A stretch of 51,009 bases of DNA. Source: an uncultured Deferribacteres bacterium. Its GTDB lineage: Bacteria; Zhuqueibacterota; JdFR-76; DREG01. Position 1 is the stretch's first letter. Each line of letters begins with the position of its first letter. The stretch covers positions 1 to 51,009 of the forward strand of contig CAYXGW010000029.1 in the NCBI GenBank assembly GCA_964464595.1. The letters run 5' to 3'. The position numbers and the translations under genes were made by a program. A model generated the notes under the pieces. The model saw only the letters and a program-made list of their open reading frames with translations. It had not been told where the DNA came from and did no database searches. This document shows positions 9,916-47,373 of this stretch, in pieces.

Positions 9916-9935
9916 ATTACGAGGAATCTAATATT

Positions 9936-16288: not shown

Positions 16289-16317
16289 AAAAAACAAGAA
16301 TAGGAATATAAATAACA

Positions 16318-17244
16318 ATGAAATGGTGTAATTTGATTTTTTTCGTTATCTCTTTGGCGATTTTGACGGGTTGTAGTTCAAGTTCTCAACCGGATTTTAG
16401 TGCTGAAAAAATCCGGGAATTTGCCAATGAACTTTATAATCGACAGCTGTTTGAACAAGCAGTCGATCAATATCAGTTTTATCTCGAAAACTACAACCTG
16501 AAGCCAAAAGAGCAGGCGAATATTACCTATCAAATTGCTAATATTTATTTTGATCGCATGCGTGATTATAAAAATGCACTTGCACATTTTCTTAAAATCA
16601 AAACTTTATATCCGGAAAGCCCGCTTATTTCGGAAGTGAACAAAAAAGTCATCATCTGTTTAGAACGATTACAAAGACCCGCCGATGCTCAACAAGTGTT
16701 GAGGGAAAGCACATCGTTTGAAGGTCAGACCCGCAAAAGTCGCCCGGGAGAAGTCATAGCTAAGATTGGCAAGCGAGATATCACATTAGGAGACCTGGAT
16801 TTTGAGATCAGCAAATTGCCACCTGAGCTCCGGTCACAATATATCACGATTGATAATAAAATAGAATTTCTTCGCAGGTATTTGGCAACAGAATTATTGT
16901 ATGATTCTGCCAAACGACAGGGGCTCGAAAATGATGATCAGGTTTTGGAAAACGTTTTTCAAGCAAAAAAAACTTTTATGGTAACAAAGTTATTAGAAGA
17001 AGAAATCAGTAAAAAAGTAAAAATCACAGAAGATGATGTTAAACTTTATTATGATGCACATAAAAATGATTTTGCGGAAAAAGATGAAGATGGAAATGTG
17101 AAACGGATGTTGTCCTTTGAAGAAGCGGGTCAACAAGCAGCACAAAAATTAGCTTTTGAGCGACAAGAAAAAGCATATAATGAATTGATTTCCTCGTTAT
17201 TTCTAGCCGAAAAAGTCGTAATTTATGATGACCTGATAAAATAA
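16318..17244 (+). CDS. Lipoprotein with a TPR-like N-terminus and a SurA-N-like chaperone domain
   Basis: Lipobox 'ILTGC', then helical repeats. The C-terminal half has periplasmic-chaperone-like character. Confidence 0.45.
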   Translation: MKWCNLIFFVISLAILTGCSSSSQPDFSAEKIREFANELYNRQLFEQAVDQYQFYLENYNLKPKEQANITYQIANIYFDRMRDYKNALAHFLKIKTLYPESPLISEVNKKVIICLERLQRPADAQQVLRESTSFEGQTRKSRPGEVIAKIGKRDITLGDLDFEISKLPPELRSQYITIDNKIEFLRRYLATELLYDSAKRQGLENDDQVLENVFQAKKTFMVTKLLEEEISKKVKITEDDVKLYYDAHKNDFAEKDEDGNVKRMLSFEEAGQQAAQKLAFERQEKAYNELISSLFLAEKVVIYDDLIK

Positions 17245-17257
17245 ACCGGTAGATTAA

Positions 17258-18355
17258 ATGATGTTTGGTTACAAAAAAATTTATTTAATTTTAATTCTCA
17301 TTTATTTATTTATTTTCAATTTTGTTTCCGATGGATTCGGTCAGGGTAACATTTCGCTGTCTGCCAGTGTGGATAAAGCGACAATTACCATTGGTGATAT
17401 CATAACCTATTCAGTATCTGTTATACGAGATGAGGATGTATCTGTCGAACTTCCAAGCTTGGGTGGAAACCTGGGACAATTCGAAATTCGTGATTATAAC
17501 ATTTATGAACCTGAAAAAAAAGATGGCAAAATCATTGACCGGGTTGATTATACAATTTCGACCTTTGAGGTTGGTGAATTTGAGATACCACCGGTTGGTA
17601 TCAGGTATTTTATCCTACCGGATTCAACTGAACAAAGCCTCAAAACCGAAGTGATTAATATTACTGTAGAAAGTGTTAAACCCAGCGAAGAAGGCGATAT
17701 CCAAGATATTAAACCACCCTGGGAAATCTTATTCAATTGGAGGCCCATTATTATTGGCGGATCGATCGCATTAATTGTGATTCTACTAATAATCGGTTTG
17801 ACTATTTATTTGCGCAAGCGGAAAAAAGGCGAATCATTTTTGCCGAAAAAAATTGAAATACCCAGGCCTCCCCATGAAATTGCTTATGAAGAGCTTAAAA
17901 TATTACAAAATTCGGATCTTCTTAAACAGGGTCAAATCAAGCTTTATTATTCAGAAATATCGGAAATTATTCGGAAATATATTGAGGGGCGATTTCAAAT
18001 TATTTCGCTTGAACTAACTACTACAGAATTGATGATTGAACTTAATACTACAGATTTATCTTCAGAAAATGTATCACTTTTTGAAATGTTTTTTACCAAT
18101 TGCGACCTGGTTAAATTTGCAAAGTTTATTCCAGGTGATGAAGAAAATGATGAAATTATGAAGTCAGCTATTCGCATTTTAGATGAAACCAAATGGGTAG
18201 AGGAACTAATTTCGGAGCTGCAAGAAAAAACGACGGATGATGAAGTGAAAGTCGATGACAAAGATCAAATGAAAGATGAAAGGAATCAACATGCTGAAGT
18301 TGCAATTGTCACGGATGAAGAGCTTTCGTCAAATTTGAATAAGGAAGATAATTAG
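17258..18355 (+). CDS. BatD-like / Bat-operon membrane protein (signal, extracytoplasmic domain, one TM, cytoplasmic tail)
   Basis: 'ISLSASVDKATITIGDIITYSVSV...' resembles the BatD N-terminal domain. TM 'WRPIIIGGSIALIVILLIIGLTIYL' is followed by RKRKK. The gene sits between DUF58 and batA, where Bat operons carry a small membrane protein. Confidence 0.5.
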   Translation: MMFGYKKIYLILILIYLFIFNFVSDGFGQGNISLSASVDKATITIGDIITYSVSVIRDEDVSVELPSLGGNLGQFEIRDYNIYEPEKKDGKIIDRVDYTISTFEVGEFEIPPVGIRYFILPDSTEQSLKTEVINITVESVKPSEEGDIQDIKPPWEILFNWRPIIIGGSIALIVILLIIGLTIYLRKRKKGESFLPKKIEIPRPPHEIAYEELKILQNSDLLKQGQIKLYYSEISEIIRKYIEGRFQIISLELTTTELMIELNTTDLSSENVSLFEMFFTNCDLVKFAKFIPGDEENDEIMKSAIRILDETKWVEELISELQEKTTDDEVKVDDKDQMKDERNQHAEVAIVTDEELSSNLNKEDN

Positions 18356-19351
18356 ATGCTTTATCGATTAGCCGATCCATATTTTTTATTCTTATTGCTG
18401 TTTTTACCGGTATTGCTCTTTTTGCATTTCAAACGGCGCTCTCCACAAACTGTAACTTTGCAATATTCTAATTTAAATATCATTAAGTCTGCCGGCAAAT
18501 CTCGATGGTATTTTTATAGGCATATCTTATTTGGTCTTCGGCTGTTGGCAATGGGATTCATCATTATTGCTTTGGCAAGACCACAATCTGGCAGTAAGGA
18601 AGAGGAAATTACAACAGAAGGGATCGATATTATTTTGGCTTTGGATATTTCAAGTTCTATGCTGGCAGAAGACTTTAAGCCCAAAAATAGATTGGAAGTT
18701 GCAAAACTTGTCGCAGAGAATTTCGTAAAAGGTCGAACAAGCGATAGAATCGGTATGGTGGTTTTTGCCGGAGAAAGTTATACGCAATGTCCACTAACTT
18801 TAGACTATGGAATCTTGTTGAACTTTATAAGAGATGTAAAAATAGGTTTGGTTGAAGACGGCACTGCAATCGGCATGGCTGTTGCAAATGCCGTTAACCG
18901 CCTTCGTGATAGTAAAGCTAAGAGTAAAGTAATTATTCTATTAACTGATGGCCGCAACAATTCCGGCGAATTACACCCTTTATCGGCTGCACAAATTGCC
19001 AAAGCTTTAGATGTAAAGATTTACACCATTGGTGCAGGCAGCAAAGGTACTGCATTGTACCCAATTGTAGATCCCGTGTTTGGAAAAAGATATCAACGCT
19101 TGCCCGTTGAAATTGATGAGGACCTTTTACAAAAAATGGCATCTATGACAGGCGGGCAATATTTCAGAGCCATAGATAAAAGTTCTCTTGAGAAAATTTT
19201 TGATGAGATTGGTCAACTAGAAAAAACCAAGATTGAAGTTAAAGAATACACTCGTTATCGGGAATTGTTTTCAATTTTTCTTTCTGTAGGATTGATTTTG
19301 TTTGGGTTGGAAATGTTATTATCAAATACAAAATTCAAGAAAATACCATAA
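18356..19351 (+). CDS. batA: vWA-domain protein BatA
   Basis: Two N-terminal TMs and a vWA domain with MIDAS 'DIILALDISSSM'. Confidence 0.85.
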   Translation: MLYRLADPYFLFLLLFLPVLLFLHFKRRSPQTVTLQYSNLNIIKSAGKSRWYFYRHILFGLRLLAMGFIIIALARPQSGSKEEEITTEGIDIILALDISSSMLAEDFKPKNRLEVAKLVAENFVKGRTSDRIGMVVFAGESYTQCPLTLDYGILLNFIRDVKIGLVEDGTAIGMAVANAVNRLRDSKAKSKVIILLTDGRNNSGELHPLSAAQIAKALDVKIYTIGAGSKGTALYPIVDPVFGKRYQRLPVEIDEDLLQKMASMTGGQYFRAIDKSSLEKIFDEIGQLEKTKIEVKEYTRYRELFSIFLSVGLILFGLEMLLSNTKFKKIP

Positions 19352-19367
19352 GACTTTTAGGATTACA

Positions 19368-20399
19368 ATGTTTCGATTTGCAAGCGAACAATATTTATAT
19401 ACTCTTTTATTTGTTCCGGTACTGTTCCTGTTTTTTGTTTGGGTCCAAAAATCAAAAATGAAAGCCCTTGAGCGTTTCGGCAATATAAAATTGATGGATA
19501 AATTAATGTTGTCAAAAAGTCCAAAACGACAGAATTGGAAAAAAGCGCTTTTGATTCTATCATTATTTTTCTTTCTTGTTGCCCTTGCCCGGCCTCAAAT
19601 TGGGACAAAACTTGAAGAAGTAAAGCGCAGCGGAGTTGATATTTTTGTCGCGATTGACGTATCCAAATCGATGTTGGCGGAGGACATCAAACCCAACCGG
19701 TTGACCAAAGCAAAGCATGAAGTAGCAACACTTATACATCAACTGCGAGGAGATCGTATTGGGCTAATTGTGTTTGCCGGGGAAGCATTTGTCCAATGCC
19801 CGCTTACTTTAGATTATGGCGCGCTAAAAATTTTTCTGGATATTATCGAACCGGGATTAATTCCAAGGCCTGGTACGGCTATAGGCAAAGCAATAGAAAA
19901 ATCAATTGAATCATTTGTAGAGACTGAAAGAAAACATAAAGTATTGATTCTCATTACAGATGGAGAAGATACCGTAAAGGATCCTATGAAAGTTGCAGAG
20001 ATTGCAGAAAAAGAAGGTATCGTAATCTATACAGTAGGAATTGGTTCTTCACAAGGAGTTCCGATCCCTGAGTTTGATGGATCTGGAAAACAAGTGGGGT
20101 TTAAAAAAGACAAAAAAGGGAATGTGGTTACTTCTAAATTGGATCCACTCACTCTCGAAAAAATTGCACTTCAAACGAATGGTAAATATTATAATGCTAC
20201 ACCCGCGGAAATGGAACTTTCCAAAATCTATGAAGATATAGATAAAATGGATAAAAAGGAGTTATCGTCAAGAATATTTTCACAATACGAAGATCGATTT
20301 CAATACTTCTTAGCCATCGGCCTATTTTTGCTATTAGCTGATCTATTTATTCCGGAACGAAGAAAAGTAAAAACCGAGTGGAGAGGAAGGTTTGAGTAA
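19368..20399 (+). CDS. batB: vWA-domain protein BatB
   Basis: N-terminal TMs, MIDAS 'DIFVAIDVSKSM', C-terminal TM. The ATG at 19368 follows the batA stop at 19351. The ORF-track start at 19302 overlaps batA and was rejected. Confidence 0.85.
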   Translation: MFRFASEQYLYTLLFVPVLFLFFVWVQKSKMKALERFGNIKLMDKLMLSKSPKRQNWKKALLILSLFFFLVALARPQIGTKLEEVKRSGVDIFVAIDVSKSMLAEDIKPNRLTKAKHEVATLIHQLRGDRIGLIVFAGEAFVQCPLTLDYGALKIFLDIIEPGLIPRPGTAIGKAIEKSIESFVETERKHKVLILITDGEDTVKDPMKVAEIAEKEGIVIYTVGIGSSQGVPIPEFDGSGKQVGFKKDKKGNVVTSKLDPLTLEKIALQTNGKYYNATPAEMELSKIYEDIDKMDKKELSSRIFSQYEDRFQYFLAIGLFLLLADLFIPERRKVKTEWRGRFE

Positions 20400-20425
20400 A
20401 CTTATTCGACCAAATAGGTAATATT

Positions 20426-21148
20426 ATGAAATTGTTTAGATATACAACTGTTTTACTTGTTCTGATTTTACCAACTATTCTGTTTTCCCAATCTACCAGG
20501 GAAAGGGTAAAAAATGGTAATGAATTATTTGCTGATAAGAACTATGATCAGGCATTAAATAAATATCAAGATGCTCTTTTGTCAGATCCTGAGAATGATA
20601 GAATTCAATTCAATGTTGGCAATACATTATACAAAAAGAATAATTATGAAGATGCTTTGCAAGAATACCAAAAAGTTATGGGGAGTGAAGATTTGCAGCT
20701 AGAACAACAAGCATATTATAATGTTGGCAACACTCTATATAAACTTGGGAAATTACCTGAGAGTATTCTTGCTTATCAGCAAGCGTTAAAAATGAACCCT
20801 GACGATATCGATGCCAAATACAATTTAGAATATGTTCGCCGTAAATTAAAAGATAATAAAGATGAGCAGAACCAGGATCAACAGAACCAACAACAGCAAC
20901 AACAGCAAGACCAACAGAATCAGCAGCAACAACAAGGAGACGATGAGCAAGATCAGCAGCAACAAGAACAGCAAGGTGATGAGGAACAAGAGCAACAAGG
21001 TGAGCAACAAAACCAACAGAGCTCTGAACAATTGTCAAAAGAAGATGCCGAACGAATTTTAGATGCCTTAAAGAATGATGAAAAGGAGATTCAGAAAAAA
21101 CGGAAAGTTAAGAGTAAAGGGCGGTATCGGGTGGAAAAAGATTGGTGA
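20426..21148 (+). CDS. batC: TPR-repeat protein BatC with a Gln/Glu/Asp-rich low-complexity tail
   Basis: Signal peptide, three TPR units ('YDQALNKYQDALLSDPEND', 'YEDALQEYQKV', 'LPESILAYQQALKMNPDD'), then roughly 60 aa of poly-Q/E/D. Confidence 0.8.
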   Translation: MKLFRYTTVLLVLILPTILFSQSTRERVKNGNELFADKNYDQALNKYQDALLSDPENDRIQFNVGNTLYKKNNYEDALQEYQKVMGSEDLQLEQQAYYNVGNTLYKLGKLPESILAYQQALKMNPDDIDAKYNLEYVRRKLKDNKDEQNQDQQNQQQQQQQDQQNQQQQQGDDEQDQQQQEQQGDEEQEQQGEQQNQQSSEQLSKEDAERILDALKNDEKEIQKKRKVKSKGRYRVEKDW

Positions 21149-21152
21149 GAAA

Positions 21153-23036
21153 ATGACTTTTAATAAGAACATAAAAATCAAATTTCCAAATAAAAATTTA
21201 GATGCACTTTATTTTCTTGTTTTATTCTTTTTTACATTTCCACATTTTCTCTTTAGTCAGGATTTAACGCTGAAAACCTTAGTCGATCGCACGAAAGTAG
21301 CAACCAACCAACAATTCTCTTTAACAATTGAAATATCAGGAAAGGAAGCTCAATCCGTAGGAATTCCCAATCCACCGGATTTATCATCATTTGCCATTTT
21401 ATCCGGCAACTCAGGTACCACATCCAGTTTTCAGCTATTAAATGGCAGAATGTCAGTTTCAAAGAGTGCAACCTACAACTATATTGCGAGCACAGAAGGT
21501 GAATTTAATATTCCATCCATCTCGATTAATTTTAGCGGAAACACATATCGTTCAAGGCCAATTAAAATTGAAATCGTTAAGGGTACTACCCCGCCTTTAA
21601 CTGCTCGAAATCGGAGTTCAAGGAGTGGCGGTATTCAACCGGAAGGGGAGCTTGAAGGGAATTTGTATTTAGCCGCAGAAATCAATAAGAATACGGTTTT
21701 TAGAAATGAACCAATTGTCGTTACCTATAAAATTTATACCAGGGTTGAGGTGAGTAATTACAGCCTGATCAAATCGCCGGATCTGATCGGTTTTTGGACT
21801 GAAGATTTTGAGATTCCCAAGCAACCAAATACTTATGAAGAAATTATTGATGGTAAAAGATTTCTTGTAGCTGAAATCAAAAAGATTGCACTTTTTCCTA
21901 CCCAAACAGGGGAAAAAATTTTGGGGCCGATGGAAATAGATTGTGAAGTCCGGCTCAAAACACGAAGAAGAAGTCGTGATATTTTTGAGGATTTTTTTGA
22001 TAGTAGCAGTCTTTTTGGTCAAAGGGTTCGGACAACCATTACAAGTAAACCACTTAAAATTACGGTAAAACCCTTGCCTCTGGAGGGAAGACCTTCAGAT
22101 TTTAATGGTGTGGTTGGCAGTTTTAGTTGGAACGTATCTTTGGATAAGAATGAAGTATCCACCAACGAGGCGATTACTCTGAAGATGAAAATCAAAGGGA
22201 GAGGAAATATTAAAATATTGCCTGAGCCAAAATTTAAATTTCCTCAAGGGTTTGAAATGTATGAACCGGAAGTAAGCCAGAAAATAAATCGAACCGGTAA
22301 TGTAATAAGTGGTGAAAAAGTATACGAATATGTTTTTATTCCCAGGTTTGCAGGGACACACAGGATTAAGCCAATATCCTTTGTATATTTTGATCCAAAT
22401 TCTTTTTCTTATAAGAGGCTGGAAACACCTGAATTTGTAATCAAGGCCAAAGCTTCGACGGGAACGGGTGCGCCAATCACAAGCGGGTTAACTCGTGAAG
22501 AGATAAAATTCATAGGTAGGGATATTCGTTTTATTAAAGAAAGACCGGTTGAATTCCAGAAGATTGGCAATCATTTTCATAAATCATTTCTTTTTGGATT
22601 TTTAATTAGTATCCCCCTTGTTGCTTTTGGTGGCACATTATTATACCGCCAAAGGCAAGGAAAAATGGAAGTGAATGTCGCGTATGCAAGAAATCGGCGG
22701 GCGAATCAGATGGCGAAGAAAAAACTCGCAGGAGCCCACAAAATATTAAAACCCGATCACCAAAAAGAATTTTATGCTGAGATTTCAAAAGCTTTGCTTG
22801 GATTTATCTCTGACAAACTAAACCTATCAGCGGCTGGATTAAACAGTGATGAGGTTGAAGAAAAGCTGAAAGAAAGAAAAGTTAAAAAGGAAGTTGTTGC
22901 AGAGGTATTATCCATTGTTCAAGAGTGTGATTTCCAAAGATTTGCACCTTCGAATACTACGGTAGAAGATATGCAGCAATTCTATAATCGAGCGACTTCC
23001 GCAATATCTAACCTGGAAAAATCAGATCTTAGTTAA
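21153..23036 (+). CDS. batD: BatD (oxygen-tolerance) protein
   Basis: About 620 aa: signal peptide, large extracytoplasmic region, TM 'FLFGFLISIPLVAFGGTLLY', cytoplasmic C-terminus. Sits in the canonical batC-batD-batE position. The ATG at 21153 follows the batC stop. Confidence 0.8.
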   Translation: MTFNKNIKIKFPNKNLDALYFLVLFFFTFPHFLFSQDLTLKTLVDRTKVATNQQFSLTIEISGKEAQSVGIPNPPDLSSFAILSGNSGTTSSFQLLNGRMSVSKSATYNYIASTEGEFNIPSISINFSGNTYRSRPIKIEIVKGTTPPLTARNRSSRSGGIQPEGELEGNLYLAAEINKNTVFRNEPIVVTYKIYTRVEVSNYSLIKSPDLIGFWTEDFEIPKQPNTYEEIIDGKRFLVAEIKKIALFPTQTGEKILGPMEIDCEVRLKTRRRSRDIFEDFFDSSSLFGQRVRTTITSKPLKITVKPLPLEGRPSDFNGVVGSFSWNVSLDKNEVSTNEAITLKMKIKGRGNIKILPEPKFKFPQGFEMYEPEVSQKINRTGNVISGEKVYEYVFIPRFAGTHRIKPISFVYFDPNSFSYKRLETPEFVIKAKASTGTGAPITSGLTREEIKFIGRDIRFIKERPVEFQKIGNHFHKSFLFGFLISIPLVAFGGTLLYRQRQGKMEVNVAYARNRRANQMAKKKLAGAHKILKPDHQKEFYAEISKALLGFISDKLNLSAAGLNSDEVEEKLKERKVKKEVVAEVLSIVQECDFQRFAPSNTTVEDMQQFYNRATSAISNLEKSDLS

Positions 23037-23801
23037 ATGCTTATTCGAAAAACTATATTTCAATTTTGTCTATACTTTCTTTTAATATTTTGTGGCAATG
23101 TCTATGCAGATCATCAAGAGCATAAATTTAATGAGGCAAACCAGTTTTATCAAAATGGTCAGTATGAAGAAGCGATTAACGCTTACGAAGAAATTCTGGA
23201 AATGGGGTATGAAAGTGCAGAACTATATTATAATCTTGGTAATTCTCTTTATAAATTGGGAAAAAATCCTCGAGCGATTTTAAATTATGAGAGAGCTTTG
23301 CGACTGAAACCAAATGATGAAGATATCCAATTCAACTTACAAATTGCTAATTTACAAGTACTCGATAAGATTCCATCCATCCCAGAATTGTTTTATGTAA
23401 AATTCATTAATGAGATAGGGAATTATTTTAGCCTGCATTCACTTACATTGTTGACAATATTCATTTATATCTGTTTTTTTTCTTTTTTGATAATCTGGAT
23501 TCTAATTAAACCCGGTTCGCTCAAGAGAATATTTAAGACAATGTCATATGGACTTGGTATAATTCTAATCTTTTTTTCTTTCTTATTCATTTCCAAAGTA
23601 TCCCATAAAAGAGTTGATGCCATCGTTATGGAAAGTGAGATTGATGTTAGAAGCGCCCCATCCTCAGATGGAACTGAGATATTTAAAATTCATGAAGGCC
23701 TAAAAGTAAAAATAACGGATCGACGAGGTGATTGGATCGAGATCAGGCTTTCTGATGGAAAAGAAGGATGGCTTGAGTCTTTGACCATCGAAACAATTTA
23801 G
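23037..23801 (+). CDS. batE: BatE (TPR repeats, TM segments, C-terminal SH3b-like domain)
   Basis: TPR units ('YEEAINAYEEILEMGYES', 'NPRAILNYERALRLKPND'), two TMs, C-terminal 'GDWIEIRLSDGKEGWL' (SH3b-like). Confidence 0.75.
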   Translation: MLIRKTIFQFCLYFLLIFCGNVYADHQEHKFNEANQFYQNGQYEEAINAYEEILEMGYESAELYYNLGNSLYKLGKNPRAILNYERALRLKPNDEDIQFNLQIANLQVLDKIPSIPELFYVKFINEIGNYFSLHSLTLLTIFIYICFFSFLIIWILIKPGSLKRIFKTMSYGLGIILIFFSFLFISKVSHKRVDAIVMESEIDVRSAPSSDGTEIFKIHEGLKVKITDRRGDWIEIRLSDGKEGWLESLTIETI

Positions 23802-33320: not shown

Positions 33321-33599
33321 GTGTCGATATATTGTAAAAAATCAATTTATACATTGCCTACCTATAACGATATATTAAGAAATTATGTTGGAGCCGTAGG
33401 GAAACTAACCCGGTTTAAAGGCGAGTTCCATCGCTTCAGAGTTGCATTCAAGATTGCAGATCCGTCAGTAGTTAAAGATATGCGTAGCCAGGGAGCCGAG
33501 TTGTATACTCTTGTCGAAGTCGGCGACGATTATATTGCTTTTCAAACCTCTAATACTAAAGTGTACCTTCCAACGTCGACCGTAGTTTTAGAAGACTAA
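33321..33599 (+). CDS. Hypothetical small protein (up to 92 aa; alternative ATG at 33386)
   Basis: Open frame only. No recognisable motif and no strong RBS. Lies between the tRNA and the BMC locus. Confidence 0.3.
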   Translation: MSIYCKKSIYTLPTYNDILRNYVGAVGKLTRFKGEFHRFRVAFKIADPSVVKDMRSQGAELYTLVEVGDDYIAFQTSNTKVYLPTSTVVLED

Positions 33600-33630: not shown

Positions 33631-33718
33631 TTTGTCAATTAAAACTTGACAAAGTAATATTTTTTTAATACGTTTTGGACAAATGTTCAACATAAGTGAA
33701 CATATGTTCAAATGAACA
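33631..33718 (+). promoter_or_regulatory. Candidate operator region of the DeoR/SorC regulator: two palindromic elements upstream of and overlapping its start codon
   Basis: TTTGTCAA-n7-TTGACAAA at 33631-33653. Alternating TGTTCA/TGAACA half-sites at 33684-33718, including the perfect palindrome TGAACAtaTGTTCA. Confidence 0.45.
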
Positions 33719-34677
33719 AAAATATAAATCAAACACACATGATAGTAGAAGCAGCTCAATTATATTACGAGCATCAATTTAGTCAACAATTGATATCAAA
33801 GAAGTTGGGTATCTCCCGCCCCGGGGTATCTCGACTTCTAAAGCAAGCTCGAGATAAAGGTATTGTTAAGATTGAAGTTATCGATCCAACAAAAAAAGGG
33901 ACTCGATTAGAAGCAAAATTAAAAGAAAAATTTGGATTAAAAAAAGTTATAGTTGTCCCAATCGATACAGATTCTTCCCAAAGTATTAAGCAGATGCTGG
34001 GTAATGCAGCAGTTAAAATTCTGGAAGTATTGGTTGAAGATAACATGATTTTGGGGGTGTCTTGGGGAACTACTATGCAAGAAGTTGCCCGGCAAGTAAA
34101 TGTGAAAATGTTTAAAGATTTAATTGTAGTTCAACTAAACGGTGGGGTTTCACGTGCCGAATATGATACTCATGCTAGTGAAATTGCCTTGAAGATTGGT
34201 GAAAAATTCCATGCAATTCCATTTTTGCTTCCCTTGCCAGCGATTGTTGATAGCCCGGAAGTTAAAAAGGCCATTGTATCAGACAAAAATATCGCTCGAA
34301 CTTTAGATTTAGCTAAACAAGCAAAAGTAGCAATATTTACAATTGGCTCATTTGGGTTAGAGTCAGTTTTGGTAAAGGCTGACTATTTCGAACAAGATGA
34401 GATAGATGCCTTATTGAAACAAAAGGCAATTGCGGATGTTTGCTCAAGAATTATAGACTCTGAAGGTAATTTATGTTCAAGTGAGCTTAACTCTCGTACA
34501 ATAGGCATTGAAATCGAGGAATTACAAAAAAAACCTTATTCAATCGCGGTTGCAGGTGGCAAAGAAAAATTAAATGCGATTCAAGCTGGTTTAAAAGGAA
34601 AAATTTTCAATATTCTAATAACAGATGAATGGGTTGCCAAAGAGCTTTTGGAAATTGATACCGACGAAAGATACTAA
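33712..34677 (+). CDS. SorC/DeoR-family sugar-phosphate-responsive transcriptional regulator
   Basis: N-terminal HTH 'LISKKLGISRPGVSRLLKQARDKGIVKI' and a C-terminal sugar-binding (SorC-like) domain. First gene of the BMC locus. Confidence 0.85.
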   Translation: MNKNINQTHMIVEAAQLYYEHQFSQQLISKKLGISRPGVSRLLKQARDKGIVKIEVIDPTKKGTRLEAKLKEKFGLKKVIVVPIDTDSSQSIKQMLGNAAVKILEVLVEDNMILGVSWGTTMQEVARQVNVKMFKDLIVVQLNGGVSRAEYDTHASEIALKIGEKFHAIPFLLPLPAIVDSPEVKKAIVSDKNIARTLDLAKQAKVAIFTIGSFGLESVLVKADYFEQDEIDALLKQKAIADVCSRIIDSEGNLCSSELNSRTIGIEIEELQKKPYSIAVAGGKEKLNAIQAGLKGKIFNILITDEWVAKELLEIDTDERY

Positions 34678-34686: not shown

Positions 34687-36093
34687 ATGACCGCAAAGAA
34701 AAATATTAACATTGCAATTGGTTCTGATCATGGTGGTTTTGATCTCAAAGAAAATTTAAAAATATTTTTATCTGAGAAAGGCTATCAATTTTCTGATTGT
34801 GGGACGGATAGTAAAGAATCAGTAGATTATCCAAAATTTGCCTATGCGGTTGCTAATAAAATTGCAAATGATGAAGTACATTTCGGCATTATGATAGATG
34901 GCGCTGGTATAGGCTCTGCTATAGCAGCAAATAAGGTTAAAGGAGTTCGTGCAGCATCTTGCTACAATGTTCAAACTGCAAAAAATGCGCGAGAACACAA
35001 TAATGCAAATATGCTCACTTTGGGAGGTGGTTTAATAGAACCAGGGTTGGCTAGGCAAATCGTTGAAATATTTTTAACTACAGATTGTACTATCGATAGA
35101 CATTTGCGCCGAGTGCAAATGATCAATGAATTAGATAATACAATGCCACCAAACAAGTTATTAAAAGATAATAGTCTAACAAACAAGGAGAAAACCTTGA
35201 TAAATATTTCTAGTGCAGATCTTGCTAGAATTGCTGAAAGAGTGGGTGAATTAATCGTAGGTTCCAGTGAGAGTACACAAGGCGCGAATTGTGGAACGGA
35301 TATGGTGTGCGCATGCGGTATGTGTGTAGAGCGAAAGCCTGAAACCATTCGTAAATTCCTCAATTCCGGAGTTGAAAGAATCGGTTATCATGATGGAACT
35401 GGCTGTGAATGTGTACCTCAAGACATCGCGCATTGTATCGATCACACCTTGCTGAAACCTGATGCCATGGAAAAAGATGTCATACAGCTTTGTAATGAAG
35501 CGAGAGAATACAATTTTGCTACTGTGTGCATTAGTCCAAGTTATGTTAGGTTAGCGGCAAAACATCTTGCAGGAACCCGGGTTAAAGTCTGTACCGTTGT
35601 GGGTTTCCCATCGGGTGCACATTTACCAGAAATTAAAGCAATGGAAACGAGACAAGCAATCCGCGACGGCGCTAGTGAGATTGATATGGTCATCAATATT
35701 GGCGCTTTAAAAAGTGGAAATGATGACCTAGTCTACCGGGATATTCGCATGGTTTGTGAAGCATGCGAAGATGGAGGTGTAATCAGTAAAGTTATTATAG
35801 AGGCGGCTCTGTTATCAGATGATGAAAAGCTTCGAGCTTGCAATTTGGCAAAGATAGCTCGTGCAAATTTTGTTAAGACCTCTACCGGTTTTGGACCTCA
35901 TGGGGCTACAGCTGAAGATGTTTCTCTTATGAGCAGGGTAGTGCAGCAGTCAGGAATTGAAGTAAAAGCTGCAGGAGGTATTCGCGATTTAGAATCAGCA
36001 AAAGAAATGATTGCAGCGGGTGCAACTAGAATTGGGGCAAGTGCAGGCATCAAAATCTTGCAAGAAGCTAAATCAATTACAGTATCAAATTGA
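34687..36093 (+). CDS. Bifunctional fusion: RpiB/LacAB-family sugar-phosphate isomerase (aa 1-150), Cys-rich linker with an amphipathic helix (aa 151-245), then deoxyribose-phosphate aldolase DeoC/DERA (aa 246-468)
   Basis: RpiB: 'NIAIGSDHGGFDL...DYPKFAYAVA...GIMIDGAGIGSAIAANK'. Linker: 'ADLARIAERVGELIV' and 'CGTDMVCACGMCVERK...GTGCEC'. DERA: 'HCIDHTLLKPDA...ATVCISP...VGFPSG...FVKTSTGF' (Schiff-base Lys). Confidence 0.85.
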   Translation: MTAKKNINIAIGSDHGGFDLKENLKIFLSEKGYQFSDCGTDSKESVDYPKFAYAVANKIANDEVHFGIMIDGAGIGSAIAANKVKGVRAASCYNVQTAKNAREHNNANMLTLGGGLIEPGLARQIVEIFLTTDCTIDRHLRRVQMINELDNTMPPNKLLKDNSLTNKEKTLINISSADLARIAERVGELIVGSSESTQGANCGTDMVCACGMCVERKPETIRKFLNSGVERIGYHDGTGCECVPQDIAHCIDHTLLKPDAMEKDVIQLCNEAREYNFATVCISPSYVRLAAKHLAGTRVKVCTVVGFPSGAHLPEIKAMETRQAIRDGASEIDMVINIGALKSGNDDLVYRDIRMVCEACEDGGVISKVIIEAALLSDDEKLRACNLAKIARANFVKTSTGFGPHGATAEDVSLMSRVVQQSGIEVKAAGGIRDLESAKEMIAAGATRIGASAGIKILQEAKSITVSN

Positions 36094-36168
36094 AACGGAA
36101 TAAACAAAAACTGGTAAGGTTTTTACGAATGAAATTCAGTAACAATAATAAAATGAGGAGACAATCAA

Positions 36169-36789
36169 GTGGTTGATCTAAGAGCTTACGTATTTTTAGA
36201 TAAACTGCAGCCACAATATGCTGCATTTTTAGGAACAATAGCTCAGGGATTTTTACCGATTGCGGGTATGGCATCTTTATATATCGAAATATCTCCTGGC
36301 ATCGAAATTAACCGGATCACCGACATCGCTCTAAAATCTACCAATGTAACTCCGGGTATGCAGATTGTAGAAAGATTGTATGGCATGTTGGAAATCCACT
36401 CGGAATCCCAAGCAGATGTTCGTCAAGCGGGAAGGGCAATTCTGGATGCGCTTGAATTGAATGAAGAGGATCGGTGGAAACCGAAGATATTTTCCAAACA
36501 GGTCATTCGACGAATAGATGATCACCAGACCCAATTAATCAATCGGATGCGGCATGGTAACATGATAGTTCCCGGTGAAACACTTTTCGTTATGGAGGTT
36601 CAACCGGCGGCTTACGCAGCCCTGGCAGCAAACGAAGCAGAAAAAGCTTCGGAAATTAATATCTTAGAAGTCCGGTCGTTCGGTAGTTTTGGAAGAATTT
36701 ATTTGGGCGGAGAAGAACGGGATATAGATGTTGGTTGGCGCGCTGCCGTAAGGGCAATTGAAGAAGTTACAGGTAAAGAAAAAGAATAA
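36169..36789 (+). CDS. BMC shell protein, tandem/permuted BMC-domain type (BMC-T, EutL/PduB-like)
   Basis: 206 aa. '[25 protein letters not shown]' is a permuted-BMC N-terminus and a second BMC-like repeat lies in the C-terminal half. The gene sits among shell genes. Confidence 0.6.
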
Positions 36790-36844
36790 TGATTGAAATT
36801 TAGAATTCTCGTATTTACACCAAAATTATCTGGAGGTAATTAAG

Positions 36845-37156
36845 ATGGCTGAAGCATTAGGAATGATAGAAACACGTAGTTACCCGGCAATGGTAGAAGC
36901 AGCAGATGCAATGGTAAAGGCTGCAAAAGTTGAATTAGTGGCATTTCAAAATACAGGTGGGGGCTATGTTACCGCAGTTGTGCGTGGCGATGTAGCGGCT
37001 GTGAAAGCAGCTTGCGACGCCGGCAGGGCAGGCTCTGCGCGAGTGGGTGAAATTGTAGCAGTTCATGTCATTGCACGTCCTCATAACAATGTGGATGAGG
37101 TTTTACCATTGGGCCGACAAGAAGAAAGCAAGTCTCCGTCCAAGACTAAAAAATAA
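36845..37156 (+). CDS. BMC-H hexameric shell protein (PduA/EutM/CcmK-like)
   Basis: '[58 protein letters not shown]' is the canonical Pfam BMC-domain consensus. Confidence 0.95.
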
Positions 37157-37168
37157 TAGGGAGGCACA

Positions 37169-37468
37169 ATGGTTCTCGCTAAAGTTGTGGGTACTGTAGT
37201 ATCCACGCGTAAAGAGGAAAGTATGGAAGGACTTAAATTCCTTATCTTACAGCAAGTTGATTTGGATGGTAATAATAGCGGAGGCATTGTTGTCGCCGCC
37301 GATGCGGTTGATGCGGGAGTTGGCGAATTGGTCCTTTATGCCAGCGGCAGTTCAGCTCGTCAAACCATAAAAACAGATAAACGCCCATGTGATGCGGTTG
37401 TTATGGCTATTGTGGATAATTGGGAAGTTGGTGGTAATATTAAATATAAAAAAGGCATTGATGATTAG
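37169..37468 (+). CDS. BMC-P pentameric vertex protein (EutN/CcmL/PduN family), paralog 1
   Basis: '[31 protein letters not shown]...[26 protein letters not shown]'. Confidence 0.9.
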
Positions 37469-37543
37469 TGTATTTTAGTATCCAGTTTTTAATGAAAATA
37501 GCGGTTAATGACAATGAACGAAAAATGTTTATGAAGGTGTAGT

Positions 37544-38998
37544 ATGTCACAGCTAACCCAAGAACAAGTAGATTTGATTGCTTCGCAAGTAGCAACCCTG
37601 ATAAAAGGCAAGCCCAATCAAACCACTTTGTCTCAAGCAACTTCTCACCAGACCTCAAATCCTCAGACCGCGAGTATGGGTGTATTTCCTGATATTGATT
37701 CAGCAGTGGCTGCAGCGAATCATGCTCATCTGCAATTGATGTCAATGACTCTACAAAAACGCAATGATATTATAGCGAGCATCCGAAAAAAAATGTTGGA
37801 GCACACTGAGGAATTGGCCAAACAAGCGCATGCAGAAACGGGGCTCGGAAGAGTTGAAGATAAAATTGCAAAAAATCGCTTAGTGACTGAAAAAACACCA
37901 GGTACAGAAGCCCTGGAACCAGTAGCTTATTCCGGAGATCGAGGATTAACTTTAATGGAGTTGGCTCCTTATGGTGTTATTGGAGTCATTACACCAACTA
38001 CTAATCCGACTTCAACGATTATCTGTAATACCATTGGCATGGTAGCGGCTGGCAACGCGGTTGTGTTTAATGTCCATCCTGGAGCAAAACAGGTAAGTGT
38101 TTACAACGTTGAGCTCTTAAATGAAGCTATAACAGAAGTCGGCGGACCTGCAAATTTGGTCACCACAATAGCTGATCCAACCATTGCAAGCGCTCAAGAG
38201 CTAATGACTCATAGTGGAGTTCGGCTATTGGTTGTTACCGGGGGCGCTGGTGTTGTCAAAGCAGCAATGACCAGTGGAAAACGGGCGATCTGTGCCGGGC
38301 CTGGAAATCCTCCCGTTGTAGTAGATGAAACTGCCGACATTGAAAAAGCTGCGAAGTCGATCATTGTTGGTGGGTCCATGGACAATAATATTATTTGTGT
38401 GGATGAAAAGGAAGTCTTCGTTGTTGAATCCGTAGCCGATCAATTAATTGCAGCCCTTGCGCAAGTAGATGCAATCATTTTAACTCCGGAGCAAGTTCAA
38501 CAAATAGAAAAAGTTATTTTTACAGAAAACCGTGGACCGGGCAAACCGGGAGTAATGTGTAAGGACTATATTGGGAAAAATATCAACATCATTCTTGCTA
38601 AAATTGGTTTGCAGGTAGAGAATAAAATTCGATTAGCCATAGCTCCTGTCCCTCAAGACCATCCTTTGGTGTGGAGTGAACAGATGATGCCAATTATGCC
38701 GGTAGTACGCATGCCAAATGTGGATGCGGCAATCGATATTGCAAAAGAAGCTGAGCATGACTTTCGCCATACTGCGGTCATGCATTCGCGGAATTTAGAT
38801 AACCTGAGCCGGATGGCGAAATTAATGAATTGTAGCATTTTTGTAAAAAATGGACCTTCCGTAGCGGGGCTTGGTTATGGTGGTGAAGGGTTTTGCTCAT
38901 TTTCCATAGCGAGTCCGACGGGAGAAGGCTTAACGAACCCAAGAAGTTTTTCAAGAGAAAGACGTTGTGTTTTGGTCGATCATTTTAGAATAGTATGA
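37544..38998 (+). CDS. CoA-acylating aldehyde dehydrogenase (PduP/EutE-like) with an N-terminal encapsulation-peptide-like amphipathic helix
   Basis: ALDH fold with catalytic Cys in 'ICVDEKE' and 'GPGNPPVVVDETAD'. The N-terminal 'LTQEQVDLIASQVATLIKG' amphipathic helix is followed by a polar linker. Confidence 0.85.
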   Translation: MSQLTQEQVDLIASQVATLIKGKPNQTTLSQATSHQTSNPQTASMGVFPDIDSAVAAANHAHLQLMSMTLQKRNDIIASIRKKMLEHTEELAKQAHAETGLGRVEDKIAKNRLVTEKTPGTEALEPVAYSGDRGLTLMELAPYGVIGVITPTTNPTSTIICNTIGMVAAGNAVVFNVHPGAKQVSVYNVELLNEAITEVGGPANLVTTIADPTIASAQELMTHSGVRLLVVTGGAGVVKAAMTSGKRAICAGPGNPPVVVDETADIEKAAKSIIVGGSMDNNIICVDEKEVFVVESVADQLIAALAQVDAIILTPEQVQQIEKVIFTENRGPGKPGVMCKDYIGKNINIILAKIGLQVENKIRLAIAPVPQDHPLVWSEQMMPIMPVVRMPNVDAAIDIAKEAEHDFRHTAVMHSRNLDNLSRMAKLMNCSIFVKNGPSVAGLGYGGEGFCSFSIASPTGEGLTNPRSFSRERRCVLVDHFRIV

Positions 38999-39002
38999 TA
39001 AT

Positions 39003-39614
39003 ATGATGAATAGATACCCGGCACTTGCCTTAATCGAATATTCTAGCATTGCAACCGGAATTTATTGCGGTGATGCAATGGTAAAACGTGCACCCATTAC
39101 AGTCCTCAAATCAGGAACAGTCCATCAAGGGAAATTTCTTGTGCTCATTGGCGGAAGTGTAGCTGCTGTTGAAGAATCCTACGAAGAAGGTCTTGCAATG
39201 GGTGGAGATTCTGTAATAGACAAAGTATTTCTACCATTTGTTCATACCCAGGTTCATGATGCAATTTTGGGAAAACGGCAGCCTTGTTCAAATGATGCTG
39301 TTGGAGTGATAGAAACAAACACCGTTGCTGCTACGATTCAATCGGCGGATGCTGGAGTAAAAGGCGCAGATGTAACTATTGTAGAAATCAGGTTGGCAGA
39401 TGACATTGGTGGAAAAGCAATAGCTGTTTTCAATGGAAAATTGGAAGAAGTAGAAGCCGCTGTCATGATTGCGAAAGACCAGGTCACAGAACAAGAACAT
39501 TGGCTTGGAGATGTAATAATTCCGAGAATACATGCTGAAATGGCTCATCAAATCGAACAGTCTACCAGTTTTGCTAATGTAGATCTCAATCAAGTTGAAG
39601 GGTTTGAGGTCTAA
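39003..39614 (+). CDS. BMC-T shell protein (two tandem BMC domains, PduT-like)
   Basis: Domain 1 'ALIEYSSIATGIYCGDAMVKRAPITVL...', domain 2 'VGVIETNTVAATIQSADAGVKGADVTIVEI...'. 203 aa. Confidence 0.8.
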   Translation: MMNRYPALALIEYSSIATGIYCGDAMVKRAPITVLKSGTVHQGKFLVLIGGSVAAVEESYEEGLAMGGDSVIDKVFLPFVHTQVHDAILGKRQPCSNDAVGVIETNTVAATIQSADAGVKGADVTIVEIRLADDIGGKAIAVFNGKLEEVEAAVMIAKDQVTEQEHWLGDVIIPRIHAEMAHQIEQSTSFANVDLNQVEGFEV

Positions 39615-39896
39615 ATGCTGCTTGGTAAAGTCATAGGAACATTAACGCCTTGCGTAGTTTATGAAGGACTGGAAGGTGTCCCATTGCTTTTAATTCAACC
39701 TCTCGATAAAAATAAAAACAAAACCGGCACACCACTTGTTGCTGCAGATTCAACCAGAATGGCAGGTCCTGATGAACTTATCTATTACGAAGGTGGAAGG
39801 GAAGCAGCGATGGCGTTGGAACCATGGTTTGTGCCTATAAACCATACAATTATCGGGATCGTTGATGGCGTTCATTTACTTGATTTGGAGGACTAA
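39615..39896 (+). CDS. BMC-P vertex protein, paralog 2
   Basis: 'MLLGKVIGTLTPCVVYEGLEGVPLLLIQPLD...PLVAADSTRMAGPDELIYYEGG'. The start abuts the upstream stop. Confidence 0.85.
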   Translation: MLLGKVIGTLTPCVVYEGLEGVPLLLIQPLDKNKNKTGTPLVAADSTRMAGPDELIYYEGGREAAMALEPWFVPINHTIIGIVDGVHLLDLED

Positions 39897-40190
39897 ATGA
39901 TTTTGGGCCGCATCAGCGGAGCTATTCATTCGACAATAAATCATGATTTTTATGACAACAAAAGACTTCTAATTGTTGACCTGCTAAACATTGACGGGAA
40001 GCCAACTGGCAAGTATTTAATCGCAGTTGATTCAGTAGATGCCGGCGTGGGTGAAACGGTGCTAGTGATAGACGAAGGCAATTCGGCCAGGCAGATCCTG
40101 GATGATGCACTGGCACCGATAAGATCTATTATCGTCGGCATTGTTGATGAAGTGCATTTACCAGGCATAATTAATTCTTTTAATTTGTAG
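39897..40190 (+). CDS. BMC-P vertex protein, paralog 3
   Basis: 'MILGRISGAIHSTINHDFYDNKRLLIVDL...YLIAVDSVDAGVGETVLVIDEGNSARQ'. The start abuts the upstream stop. Confidence 0.85.
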   Translation: MILGRISGAIHSTINHDFYDNKRLLIVDLLNIDGKPTGKYLIAVDSVDAGVGETVLVIDEGNSARQILDDALAPIRSIIVGIVDEVHLPGIINSFNL

Positions 40191-40495: not shown

Positions 40496-41143
40496 ATGTT
40501 TACAGATTGGGAAGCAAGGCGACAGATCGTCAGTTTTGGTAAAAAGACATATGAAAAGGGTTTGGTAGCCGCGACAGATGGTAATATTTCGGTCCGAATG
40601 ATGTCTGACCGATTCATGATAACACCCAGTGGAGTTCCTCTTTCGGATCTTGATTTAAATGATCTTGTCTATGTTAATTTAGACGGACAGGTTTTGCAGG
40701 GGCGAAAAAAGCCATCCTCCGAATTACCGATGCATCTGGAAATTTACCGGCAACGTCCCGAAATGAATGCAGTCATTCACGCCCATCCGCCCACAACTGT
40801 TGCATTTACAATAGCCGGGGAGACTTTTATTCAGCCGGTATTACCGGAACTTGTCGTTCTATTCGGTGAAATTCCCATCGCCACCTATGCTACTCCCGCC
40901 ACAGAAGAAAGCGCTAACTCCATTCGTGATTTAATTCCAAATAATGATGTAATTGTTTTAGATCACCATGGTGCCGTAACTGTAGGTAAGTCCCTGGATG
41001 ACGCCTTTGCAAAAATGGAAAAATTAGAGCATTCTTCAATCACGTTATTAGCAGCAAAACAAATTGGCCGCATCAATCCTTTAGAGCCTTCCGACGTCCG
41101 CAAACTTGAAAAGATGCGTAAAGAGAAGGGGTATAGCAATTAA
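40496..41143 (+). CDS. Class II aldolase/adducin-family protein (FucA/AraD-like)
   Basis: 'DGNISVRM...ITPSG...ELPMHLEIYRQRPEMNAVIHAHPP', metal-binding His cluster. Confidence 0.85.
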   Translation: MFTDWEARRQIVSFGKKTYEKGLVAATDGNISVRMMSDRFMITPSGVPLSDLDLNDLVYVNLDGQVLQGRKKPSSELPMHLEIYRQRPEMNAVIHAHPPTTVAFTIAGETFIQPVLPELVVLFGEIPIATYATPATEESANSIRDLIPNNDVIVLDHHGAVTVGKSLDDAFAKMEKLEHSSITLLAAKQIGRINPLEPSDVRKLEKMRKEKGYSN

Positions 41144-45646: not shown

Positions 45647-45732
45647 TTGTGTTTAAAGATAAAAAACATACTATTTTTGATAATTCCATTTTAATGATAT
45701 ATATTAAAAGCTAAAAGTTGAATGGATTTTTT

Positions 45733-47373
45733 ATGAAGCATAAAACCAAATTAACATTACTTTTTCTTTTCATTTTCTCATCCAATAATAATGCGCAGCA
45801 GAAGTCTACATGGGAAATTATACAAGATAAAATCTTAACGCCTACCTGTACGAGTTGTCATGTTGCAGGATCTTCTTTTGCCATTCAATCCGGGTTGGTT
45901 TTAACCAAGGATGTTGCTTATAAAAATATAGCAAATCGCACGCCTAACAATGAAGCAGCAAGGAGCGATGGATTATTGCTGGTGGGTAATAAAGGGCTGG
46001 AAAGTCTTTATAAAAGCTATTTGTGGGAAAAAATTGATGCTATCGATCAGGAACATTTTTATTCGGATCATCCGTACTATGGTTCCTTAATGCCTTTGGG
46101 GGCGCCACCTCTTACAAATGGACAATTAAAATTTATAAGAGAATGGATACTTGCCGGAATCCCTGAAACCGGAATTGTGGCAGATGAATCCATTCTTGAA
46201 GATATGAGTCGATTTGAAATTCCTGAGTTCCAGGCATTGGCAGCACCTGAACACGGTGTGCAACTTCATCTTGGCCCTTTCGACGTTCAAACCAATTTTG
46301 AAAGAGAATTTTTTTATTACCTGCCGCTGAATAATAATGAGGAGATTTTTATAAATCGTATTGAAATAAATATGCGGCGAGGTAGCCATCATTTTATTGC
46401 ATATCAATTTAATTCTGAAATCCCTGATTATTTAATCCCCCAGGCGAATGTTATTCGAGATATTCGTAACAGTGACGGAAGCTATAATATTTTAAATTTA
46501 TTAGCCACGCCATTTCATACTTTTGTTACTGGTACGCAATGGCCAATCTTGAATTATCATTTACCCCCGGGGGTAGCCTTAAGACTACCGGCCAATATCG
46601 GATTGGATCTAAATCTACACTACGTAAATAGAACTGATGAGATCATGCAAGGTGAAATATATGCAAATTTACACTTTGTAGAACCTCAGAATGTTGTTCA
46701 TGAAGCAAAGGCACTTAATCTTGGGAAATTTGATATAGAACTTCCCCCTCACCAAGTTACTACTTTAACTAAAACATTTACATTTTGGGAGACTAGACAT
46801 ATCTTCCAGCTATTTTCTCATGCACATGAGCATATGACAGAATTTAGAGTTGAGATTGATGGAGGTCCTAGGAATGGAGAGCTTGTCTATATCACTTACG
46901 ATTGGGAACACCCGCCTATTCTGGAATTAGATCCCCCATTAGTCATAGAAGAAGGCCAGGGTTTAAAACTAATCACAACGTATAATAATTGGACAGATCG
47001 TACTTTAAATTTTGGCTTGCGTAGTGATGATGAAATGATGATTCTGTTTGGGGCATATTACTTGAAAAAGGCCACGGGTGTTGATGATAATGAGCGAGGT
47101 AACCTGCCTGAAGTTTTTACCTTGGAGCAGAATTATCCAAACCCATTTAATCCACAAACTACGATCAGTTACAAATTGCCTCAACAAACTCAGGTCAATT
47201 TGGCTATTTATGATATAACAGGGAGAGTGGTTGAACAATTATTTGATGGTACCCAGCCTGCGGGAATCCATCAAATCATTTGGAACGCAAATGGCGCCCC
47301 ATCTGGCATGTATATTGTTAGAATTAAAACGGATAGTTTTCAGTCTATGCGGAAAATGCTGTACTTGAAGTAA
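45733..47373 (+). CDS. Secreted PHM/DBH-like copper type II monooxygenase fold, fused to an N-terminal mono-haem cytochrome c domain and a C-terminal T9SS sorting domain
   Basis: Signal peptide. 'CTSCH' haem-c motif with downstream 'SLMPLG'. 'GSHHFIAY' (HH), 'LHYV', 'HAHEHM' (HxH), 'SDDEMMILFGAYY' (Met-ligand region). T9SS CTD 'NYPNPFNPQTTISY...GMYIVRIKT'. Confidence 0.6.
   Translation: MKHKTKLTLLFLFIFSSNNNAQQKSTWEIIQDKILTPTCTSCHVAGSSFAIQSGLVLTKDVAYKNIANRTPNNEAARSDGLLLVGNKGLESLYKSYLWEKIDAIDQEHFYSDHPYYGSLMPLGAPPLTNGQLKFIREWILAGIPETGIVADESILEDMSRFEIPEFQALAAPEHGVQLHLGPFDVQTNFEREFFYYLPLNNNEEIFINRIEINMRRGSHHFIAYQFNSEIPDYLIPQANVIRDIRNSDGSYNILNLLATPFHTFVTGTQWPILNYHLPPGVALRLPANIGLDLNLHYVNRTDEIMQGEIYANLHFVEPQNVVHEAKALNLGKFDIELPPHQVTTLTKTFTFWETRHIFQLFSHAHEHMTEFRVEIDGGPRNGELVYITYDWEHPPILELDPPLVIEEGQGLKLITTYNNWTDRTLNFGLRSDDEMMILFGAYYLKKATGVDDNERGNLPEVFTLEQNYPNPFNPQTTISYKLPQQTQVNLAIYDITGRVVEQLFDGTQPAGIHQIIWNANGAPSGMYIVRIKTDSFQSMRKMLYLK

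Follow-up and report, generated by a model that had tools for sequence, protein, structure and literature searches.

The stretch of DNA analysed here, referred to as the window, is a 51,009-base contig (CAYXGW010000029.1) of a metagenome-assembled genome (MAG), and from 33.7 to 41.1 kb it carries ten close-set genes on the + strand that include the shell and cargo genes of a bacterial microcompartment (BMC). Very probably the region encodes the shell of a BMC of type SPU3 (SPU, sugar-phosphate utilisation) in an uncultured bacterium. Its shell inventory, with one hexamer gene (BMC-H), two trimer genes (BMC-T) and three pentamer genes (BMC-P1, BMC-P2 and BMC-P3, hereafter P1, P2 and P3), is the standard set already known for SPU3, and the window is thus an ordinary member of its family. 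Why, then, should a shell with 12 vertices be built with three different pentamers? They may serve as alternative vertex caps. The genes are as follows, with the best profile or structure matches in brackets.

33712-34677, + strand: SorC/DeoR-type sugar-binding transcriptional regulator (Pfam Sugar-bind PF04198, E=2e-74, plus an N-terminal helix-turn-helix)
34687-36093, + strand: RpiB-DeoC fusion, 468 aa (LacAB_rpiB at aa 9-146, E=3e-52; DeoC at aa 250-459, E=2e-21)
36169-36789, + strand: BMC-T(dp), 206 aa, GTG start (Pfam BMC on the C-terminal half only; CcmP 5lsr, E=7e-84 over aa 2-204)
36845-37156, + strand: BMC-H, 103 aa (Pfam BMC, E=2e-27)
37169-37468, + strand: BMC-P1 (EutN_CcmL, E=4e-29)
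37544-38998, + strand: aldehyde dehydrogenase (AldDH), core cargo enzyme (Aldedh, E=1e-34)
39003-39614, + strand: BMC-T(s), 203 aa (two BMC domains, E=8e-32; PduT structures, E about 1e-34)
39615-39896, + strand: BMC-P2 (EutN_CcmL, E=7e-16)
39897-40190, + strand: BMC-P3 (EutN_CcmL, E=4e-22)
40496-41143, + strand: class II aldolase (pfam00596; Aldolase_II, E=2e-51), 305 bp after P3

Spacing within the group is tight. Only 12 nt separate BMC-H from P1 and 4 nt AldDH from T(s), the stop of T(s) and the start of P2 abut at 39614/39615, and the TAA of P2 ends at 39896 with the ATG of P3 beginning at 39897, both abutting junctions reading TAA-ATG. A preliminary description of the window had listed one BMC-H, two different BMC-T and three BMC-P, the last two back-to-back; all six genes were recovered on the + strand where it had placed them, and the back-to-back arrangement is borne out to the base. 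Further BMC or EutN domains were found nowhere in the 51,009 bases, either by tblastn or by profile hidden Markov models built from the orthologue alignments and run on six-frame segments of at least 30 aa, and there is no extra shell gene across the 33 kb upstream or the 10 kb downstream of the cassette in the contig. A promoter and terminator scan of 33.1-41.6 kb gave counts no higher than those of shuffled sequence, and in the gap between P3 and the aldolase it detected no clear terminator or promoter.

The eight-gene cassette and its SPU3 assignment

A scan with the P2 alignment over one genome per species (185,579 species) found 348 loci encoding a relative of P2. The best 80 of these 348 were fetched with flanks of up to 10 kb each, and 51 of them hold all eight cassette genes. 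The 80 loci cover at least 10 phyla, and come from Verrucomicrobiota, Calditrichota, Neomarinimicrobiota, Planctomycetota, Acidobacteriota, KSB1, Zixibacteria, Ignavibacteria, Bacteroidota and a Clostridia-labelled MAG. On every contig of sufficient length the genes stand on a single strand in the order RpiB-DeoC, T(dp), BMC-H, P1, AldDH, T(s), P2 and P3, and exactly one BMC-H, one T(dp), one T(s) and three BMC-P in this same order are present in 50 of the 51 complete loci. The sole exception among them, locus L036, carries a tandem pair of T(dp) genes, which share 84% and 81% identity with that of the window. No second BMC-H occurs in the related loci, whose median flanks reach 4.9 kb upstream and 9.7 kb downstream. 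P2 and P3 are neighbours in every locus that has both; in 58 of 76 related loci the end of P2 and the start of P3 share 4 nt, in the window the two genes abut, and the AldDH-T(s) and T(s)-P2 junctions of the related loci usually overlap or abut too.

The cassettes closest to the window are those of L008, L010 and L022. One MAG (JADHYC01, Candidatus Neomarinimicrobiota BS750m-G69) holds two complete cassettes, from regulator through P3, on separate contigs (L022 and L044); they differ in their identity to the window, and may represent a genuine second locus, a mixture of strains or an error of binning.

This composition is that of a locus type already catalogued. SPU3, with 31 loci, is described in Supplementary Data 2 of the published BMC catalogue (Sutter et al., 2021, Nat Commun 12:3809, PMC8217296) as combining an AldDH with pfam01791 and pfam02502, the latter two being fused in 12 loci with pfam02502 first, and as having encapsulation peptides at the AldDH N-terminus and inside the fusion. 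Its shell is made of one standard BMC-H, a BMC-P triplet in which grey- and orange-clade members are always adjacent and accompanied by a third, a CcmP-like T(dp), and a T(s) with neither PduS nor a pore cysteine; satellite loci are uncommon, and the hosts include Marinimicrobia, Calditrichaeota, Verrucomicrobia, Planctomycetes, Acidobacteria and KSB1 (Sutter et al., 2021). The window agrees in having an RpiB-DeoC fusion with RpiB first, helices resembling encapsulation peptides at the AldDH N-terminus and inside the fusion, a single BMC-H with KAAK and ARPH motifs within the 51-kb contig, three distinct BMC-P of which P2 and P3 abut, a CcmP-like T(dp), and a T(s) lacking both pore Cys and PduS. 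The inventory had been presented as unusual in the preliminary description. It is not, being the published SPU3 set, alike in nearly every complete locus, and the model shell of Haliangium ochraceum (HO) also has one BMC-H and three BMC-P.

The cargo enzymes carry putative targeting signals where the SPU3 description places them. In the orthologues of the fusion a conserved amphipathic helix, SADLARIAERVGELIV, lies between the two domains (aa ~176-191), flanked by variable linkers, and the AldDH has a conserved amphipathic helix near its N-terminus, EQVDLIASQVATLI (aa ~6-22), which follows the pattern L-S/T-x-E-Q-I/V-D-x-I-A and is succeeded by a variable linker. Judged by sequence, both helices look like encapsulation peptides. 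Between the helix of the fusion and its DeoC domain, at 35280-35420 (aa ~200-243), the window has a Cys-rich insert (NCGTDMVCACGMCVERKP...GTGCECVP), a patchily conserved element in the linker that is unlike the SPU3 description. A C-x4-6-C-x1-2-C-x2-C pattern is found in about 11 of 54 RpiB-DeoC orthologues, several with ferredoxin-like CxxCxxC spacing; two of the cysteines are lost in the nearest relatives L010 and L022, and the segment is absent from the Verrucomicrobiota and Acidobacteriota orthologues. The insert could be an Fe-S or Zn site in the cargo enzyme.

Differences from the SPU3 description are also found at the two ends of the cassette. The SorC/DeoR-type gene upstream is probably the regulator of the locus, and an orthologue precedes the cassette in 16 of the 80 loci, all within the subset closest to the window. 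Downstream of P3 a class II aldolase, an accessory enzyme, occurs in 8 of the 80 (at more than 70% query coverage), with nine open reading frames (ORFs) having the aldolase as their best match. The aldolase orthologues of L009, L021 and L042 end in a Cys motif, SLCEQCGICK, which the window aldolase, ending in ...KEKGYSN, does not have. PduS, PTAC, alcohol dehydrogenase and acetate kinase were all absent from the 50 ORFs of the window in a Pfam scan.

Three pentamer genes for twelve vertices

The three BMC-P had been called divergent, with near-identical recent duplicates as the alternative, and the comparison upholds the divergence: pairwise identity is 34.5% for P1/P2, 34.4% for P1/P3 and 29.5% for P2/P3. 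Each covers positions 1-83 of the PF03319 profile, and is therefore a full-length domain with no extra domain. In an alignment of 224 BMC-P sequences, average-linkage clustering into three groups returns exactly P1, P2 and P3, with median identities of 70% (67 members), 71% and 62% within the groups and of 30-36% between them, and for each of the three, orthologues 54-87% identical to it occur in at least 10 phyla. P2 alone has 1756 database relatives, and in the best 120 identity to P2 runs from 73 to 100%. Averaged over 49 complete loci and the window, Kimura distances are 0.27 for T(dp), 0.28 for BMC-H, 0.36 for P2 (a value biased low because the loci were chosen by P2 similarity), 0.39 for P1, 0.49 for P3, 0.51 for AldDH, 0.60 for RpiB-DeoC and 0.90 for T(s). 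All three pentamers thus evolve more slowly than the cargo enzymes AldDH and RpiB-DeoC, which argues that none is redundant or decaying, and the comparisons indicate that purifying selection maintains each as a separate orthologue group in at least 10 phyla. Since the three are old, divergent and separately kept, some division of labour among them can fairly be inferred.

All three also keep the motifs by which pentamers dock to hexamers. The first of these, xAGxGE, acts in solved shells through its acidic residue, which forms a salt bridge with the Arg of (A/P)RPH, and through its glycine, which contacts the Lys of KAA (PMC13370225). The motif reads (G/D)AGxGE in P1 and P3 and MAGP(G/D)E in P2; its terminal Glu is present in 67/67 P1, 78/80 P2 and 64/77 P3, and the Asp of a second motif, IVD, is invariant in the three groups. 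The partner surface is just as constant: among 62 BMC-H orthologues the edge motifs KAAK (K25 in 62/62) and ARPH (R, P and H in 62/62) and the pore sequence TGGGY are essentially invariant, K25 and R78 being the partner residues for pentamer docking. Because P1, P2 and P3 all keep their docking motifs, the most likely reading of the triplet, and one which these sequences let us hold with about even confidence, is that all three would sit at five-fold vertices as alternative caps.

Comparison with solved structures gave the following matches. The best PDB match of P1 is the HO shell BMC-P 5v74 (E=8e-32), which is Hoch_5814, the vertex protein of H. ochraceum. P1 can be tied indirectly to the green-clade (paleGreen) type, being nearest to Hoch_5814, and BMC-P of 95-100 aa from HO and SPU3 main loci being labelled paleGreen. 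P2 is putatively of the grey/orange-clade type. P3 is best matched by E. coli EutN (2e-13). An AlphaFold2 (AF2) monomer of P2, with a pLDDT of 68.6, matches BMC-P structures only (EutN, GrpN, CcmL and HO BMC-P, at TM 0.7-0.8), EutN 2z9h being the top fold match.

Several points weigh against reading the window as an SPU3 compartment capped by three kinds of pentamer. The 80 loci were selected by P2 similarity, so that P2 conservation is biased upward and only SPU3-like loci were sampled. The P2 model is a moderate-confidence monomer that bears out the fold but not the oligomeric state, and for P2 and P3 pentamer form and shell position are putative. The SPU3 description lists neither a class II aldolase nor a SorC regulator, and the window has both. 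As to the green, grey and orange clades, P1 alone is linked, indirectly, to paleGreen. Finally, the metabolic role comes from domain content only, and PTAC and alcohol dehydrogenase, which would recycle cofactors, are missing from the locus.

Could P1 alone cap the 12 vertices, with P2, P3 or both placed elsewhere, as facet hexamers or other oligomers, or in the lumen as cargo or assembly scaffold? An icosahedral shell has room for only 60 pentamer subunits on its 12 vertices, a number in which the catalogue itself sees a hint of an extra BMC-P role (Sutter et al., 2021). Only one kind of BMC-P, the P1-like Hoch_5814, is seen in the H. ochraceum shell structure, and P2 has invariant motifs of its own, TPC, YYEGGREAA and WFVP, found in neither P1 nor P3. 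EutN, moreover, is both the best solved relative of P3 and the top fold match of the P2 model, and E. coli EutN reportedly crystallised as a hexamer. In solution, however, EutN is a pentamer, the xAGxGE and IVD pentamer-hexamer contact motifs are kept in all three groups, and all three proteins are canonical full-length domains to which nothing has been added. We consider a non-vertex place for P2 or P3 unlikely. The preliminary description had argued from the 12 vertices that three paralogues imply either sub-functionalisation or a non-vertex role. The argument is a reasonable one, although it repeats the published remark; its first half is fair in view of the old and separately conserved groups, and its second found no support, the docking motifs being kept.

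Beyond serving as further caps, P2 and P3 might form a closer unit. They might be a functionally obligate, co-translated pair, either as mixed pentamers or as a special vertex class that recruits cargo or sets shell size, and this can be put forward only tentatively. Such a pair recurs in SPU, HO, PVM, ACI, MIC, MUF and FRAG compartments. The strict adjacency of the two genes, their 4-nt overlap in most related loci, and the motifs invariant in the P2 family are compatible with the idea. Against it stand the presence of vertex-docking motifs in all three paralogues and the negative outcome of a mirror-tree test on the same 49 complete loci plus the window, in which the partial correlation between the P2 and P3 distance matrices was 0.18, like that of unrelated gene pairs and no higher than that of others. 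The stricter proposal, that P2 and P3 co-assemble as mixed (hetero-)pentamers, would explain both their constant adjacency and their translational coupling (4-nt overlap, or abutment in the window), but meets the same missing co-evolution signal. The two also evolve at unequal rates (0.36 vs 0.49), and no report of BMC-P heteropentamers was found in the literature searched; we regard such mixing as rather improbable. As AldDH, T(s) and P2 are also tightly coupled, the coupling of P2 to P3 may reflect operon compaction only.

The count itself might be at fault, if further BMC-H or other shell genes lay in satellite loci elsewhere in the genome and the single BMC-H were an artefact of looking at one contig. 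The window is after all one 51-kb contig of a MAG, satellite loci are common in other BMC types, and some FCB-group genomes have scattered shell genes (FRAG types, and Melioribacter with seven BMC-P). An incomplete inventory is nonetheless improbable, for the 33 kb upstream and 10 kb downstream add no shell gene, and a single BMC-H is likewise the rule in 50 of the 51 complete relatives within their median flanks of 4.9 and 9.7 kb. That the three are redundant recent duplicates, or include one or two decaying copies, has only their shared family to recommend it and was rejected as next to impossible, given 30-35% identity between paralogues, three clean orthologue groups spread over at least 10 phyla, and rates slower than those of the cargo.

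The puzzle of three pentamer genes for 12 vertices is real in many BMC types, and was already stated in 2021; no experimental study of the role of the BMC-P triplet was found in the literature searched. What is added here, and may be useful for choosing an experimental system, is a near-invariant eight-gene cassette over at least 10 phyla, in which the pentamers evolve more slowly than the cargo, the docking motifs are kept and P2 and P3 are usually coupled in translation. Should P2 and P3 form an obligate pair, the compactness and high conservation of this SPU3 cassette would recommend it as a minimal system for demonstrating what the pair does.

The hexamer and trimer tiles

The two BMC-T proteins are, as first proposed, one permuted and one tandem. 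The 206-aa protein aligns end to end with the solved structures of CcmP (E=7e-84), HO-5816 (6e-72) and CsoS1D (5e-54), and is therefore a permuted, double-stacking BMC-T(dp). Its gate pair Glu68-Arg69 is invariant in 60/60 orthologues, and aligns with the residues described as the universally conserved gate (Sutter et al., 2021). The 203-aa protein is a BMC-T(s) with standard tandem domains, and its best solved matches are PduT proteins (E about 1e-34). BMC-H ends in a Lys/Ser-rich tail (37115-37156) that varies among orthologues, the conserved core finishing at about ...VLPLGR.

A cysteine in the motif IYCGDAM of the tandem protein had been singled out in the preliminary description, and raises the question of whether T(s) might be a PduT-like, electron-conducting Fe-S tile. 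The cysteine exists (C22), and PduT proteins are the nearest solved relatives. Yet C22 belongs to the first helix motif, outside the pore, and is not conserved: in 77 orthologues its column reads A43/T20/S6/C5/G2/V1, so that 71 of them have A, T, S or G there and 5 have C. The Fe-S ligand of PduT, Cys38 (TICPGKF), aligns instead with His41 of T(s) (39123-39125), a column that reads H34/S31/Q6/T6 and never Cys in the 77 orthologues. No PduS partner is present in the window, and the T(s) of SPU3 is described as having no pore cysteine (Sutter et al., 2021). A PduT-type cluster was accordingly rejected as extremely improbable. Three His at the T(s) trimer pore could bind metal or gate the pore. 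Across the related loci, whether the pore residue is His or Ser showed no relation to the Cys-rich insert of RpiB-DeoC.

Surroundings, proposed working and known compartments

The genes that flank the cassette in the window, among them Ham1, a macro domain protein, MGMT and Fpg, are not conserved with it, Ham1 and the macro domain occurring in one locus each of the 80. The cassette thus behaves as a self-contained module in differing genomic settings, and the presence of DNA-repair genes beside a compartment for DNA sugars looks like coincidence. Just upstream of the regulator, a 92-aa ORF (33321-33599) matches no Pfam family, is without counterpart in the 80 loci, and may not be a real gene. 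G+C is 0.42-0.43 over the shell genes (36001-40000), compared with about 0.33-0.36 for most of the contig; as the DnaK/ClpB region (8-12 kb) also reaches about 0.40, the higher value may reflect conserved Ala/Gly-rich proteins, not recent transfer. Elsewhere the contig carries a heat-shock cluster (2141-12650: two Hsp20, GrpE, DnaJ, an HtrA-like protease, DnaK and ClpB), a Bat/MoxR aerotolerance-type operon (14397-23801: MoxR, DUF58, BatA/VWA, TPR and BatD) and a protein with a C-terminal T9SS-sorting domain (45718-47373), all of which are consistent with an FCB-group host. Together with the closest cassettes and the names attached to P2 relatives, the T9SS domain points to a host that is probably an FCB-group, Neomarinimicrobiota-like bacterium.

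How might the compartment work? What was observed directly is the make-up and order of the genes, their conservation and their motifs; the metabolic steps and tile roles proposed here are drawn from protein families and from the catalogue (Sutter et al., 2021). The locus suggests that the organism can break down deoxyribose and ribose phosphates inside a protein shell, probably from DNA in detritus. The encapsulated AldDH would convert acetaldehyde to acetyl-CoA, and RpiB, with the class II aldolase in this locus, would broaden the range of usable sugar phosphates. BMC-H would tile the facets, the gated T(dp), with its invariant Glu-Arg pair, would admit larger sugar phosphates, and T(s) would be a structural or pore tile and not an Fe-S electron conduit. 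P1, the nearest to the pentamer at H. ochraceum shell vertices, would be the generic vertex cap, and P2 and P3 a translationally coupled pair made together with T(s). With all three as alternative caps, offering different surfaces or pores, the vertices of the shell would not all be alike.

Among known systems, PVM compartments combine a class II aldolase with PTAC, acetate kinase and a lactate/malate-type dehydrogenase, but have neither RpiB nor DeoC. The window has the class II aldolase, without PTAC, acetate kinase or such a dehydrogenase, and a PVM-like assignment was dropped, RpiB and DeoC defining SPU. SPU5, another class II aldolase metabolosome, is without pfam02502, and its T(s), which is associated with PduS, has a cysteine in the pore, unlike that of the window. 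PduT has the same tandem-domain architecture as the T(s) found here, but His41 replaces its Cys38 ligand and PduS is missing, so that the tile is not of the PduT type.

The HO shell is like the window in its one BMC-H, its three BMC-P and its use of both T(s) and T(dp) tiles; it has three BMC-T (one T(s) and two T(dp)), the window only two. P1 is nearest to the HO vertex protein Hoch_5814 (E=8e-32) and T(dp) is near to HO-5816 (6e-72), and HO satellite loci, with two BMC-P and an aldolase, resemble the P2-P3-aldolase end of the locus; no mention of Hoch_4425 or Hoch_4426 was found in the literature searched. RpiB and DeoC, the signature enzymes, are on the other hand missing from the main HO loci, whose function has been called enigmatic, so that the window, with its RpiB-DeoC fusion, is not of the HO type. 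Lastly, CcmP and CsoS1D, the T(dp) proteins of carboxysomes, share with the T(dp) of the window the end-to-end fold alignment and the Glu-Arg gate, but the window protein sits in the locus of a heterotrophic metabolosome, and CcmP-like T(dp) are already recorded in SPU2, SPU3 and HO loci (Sutter et al., 2021).

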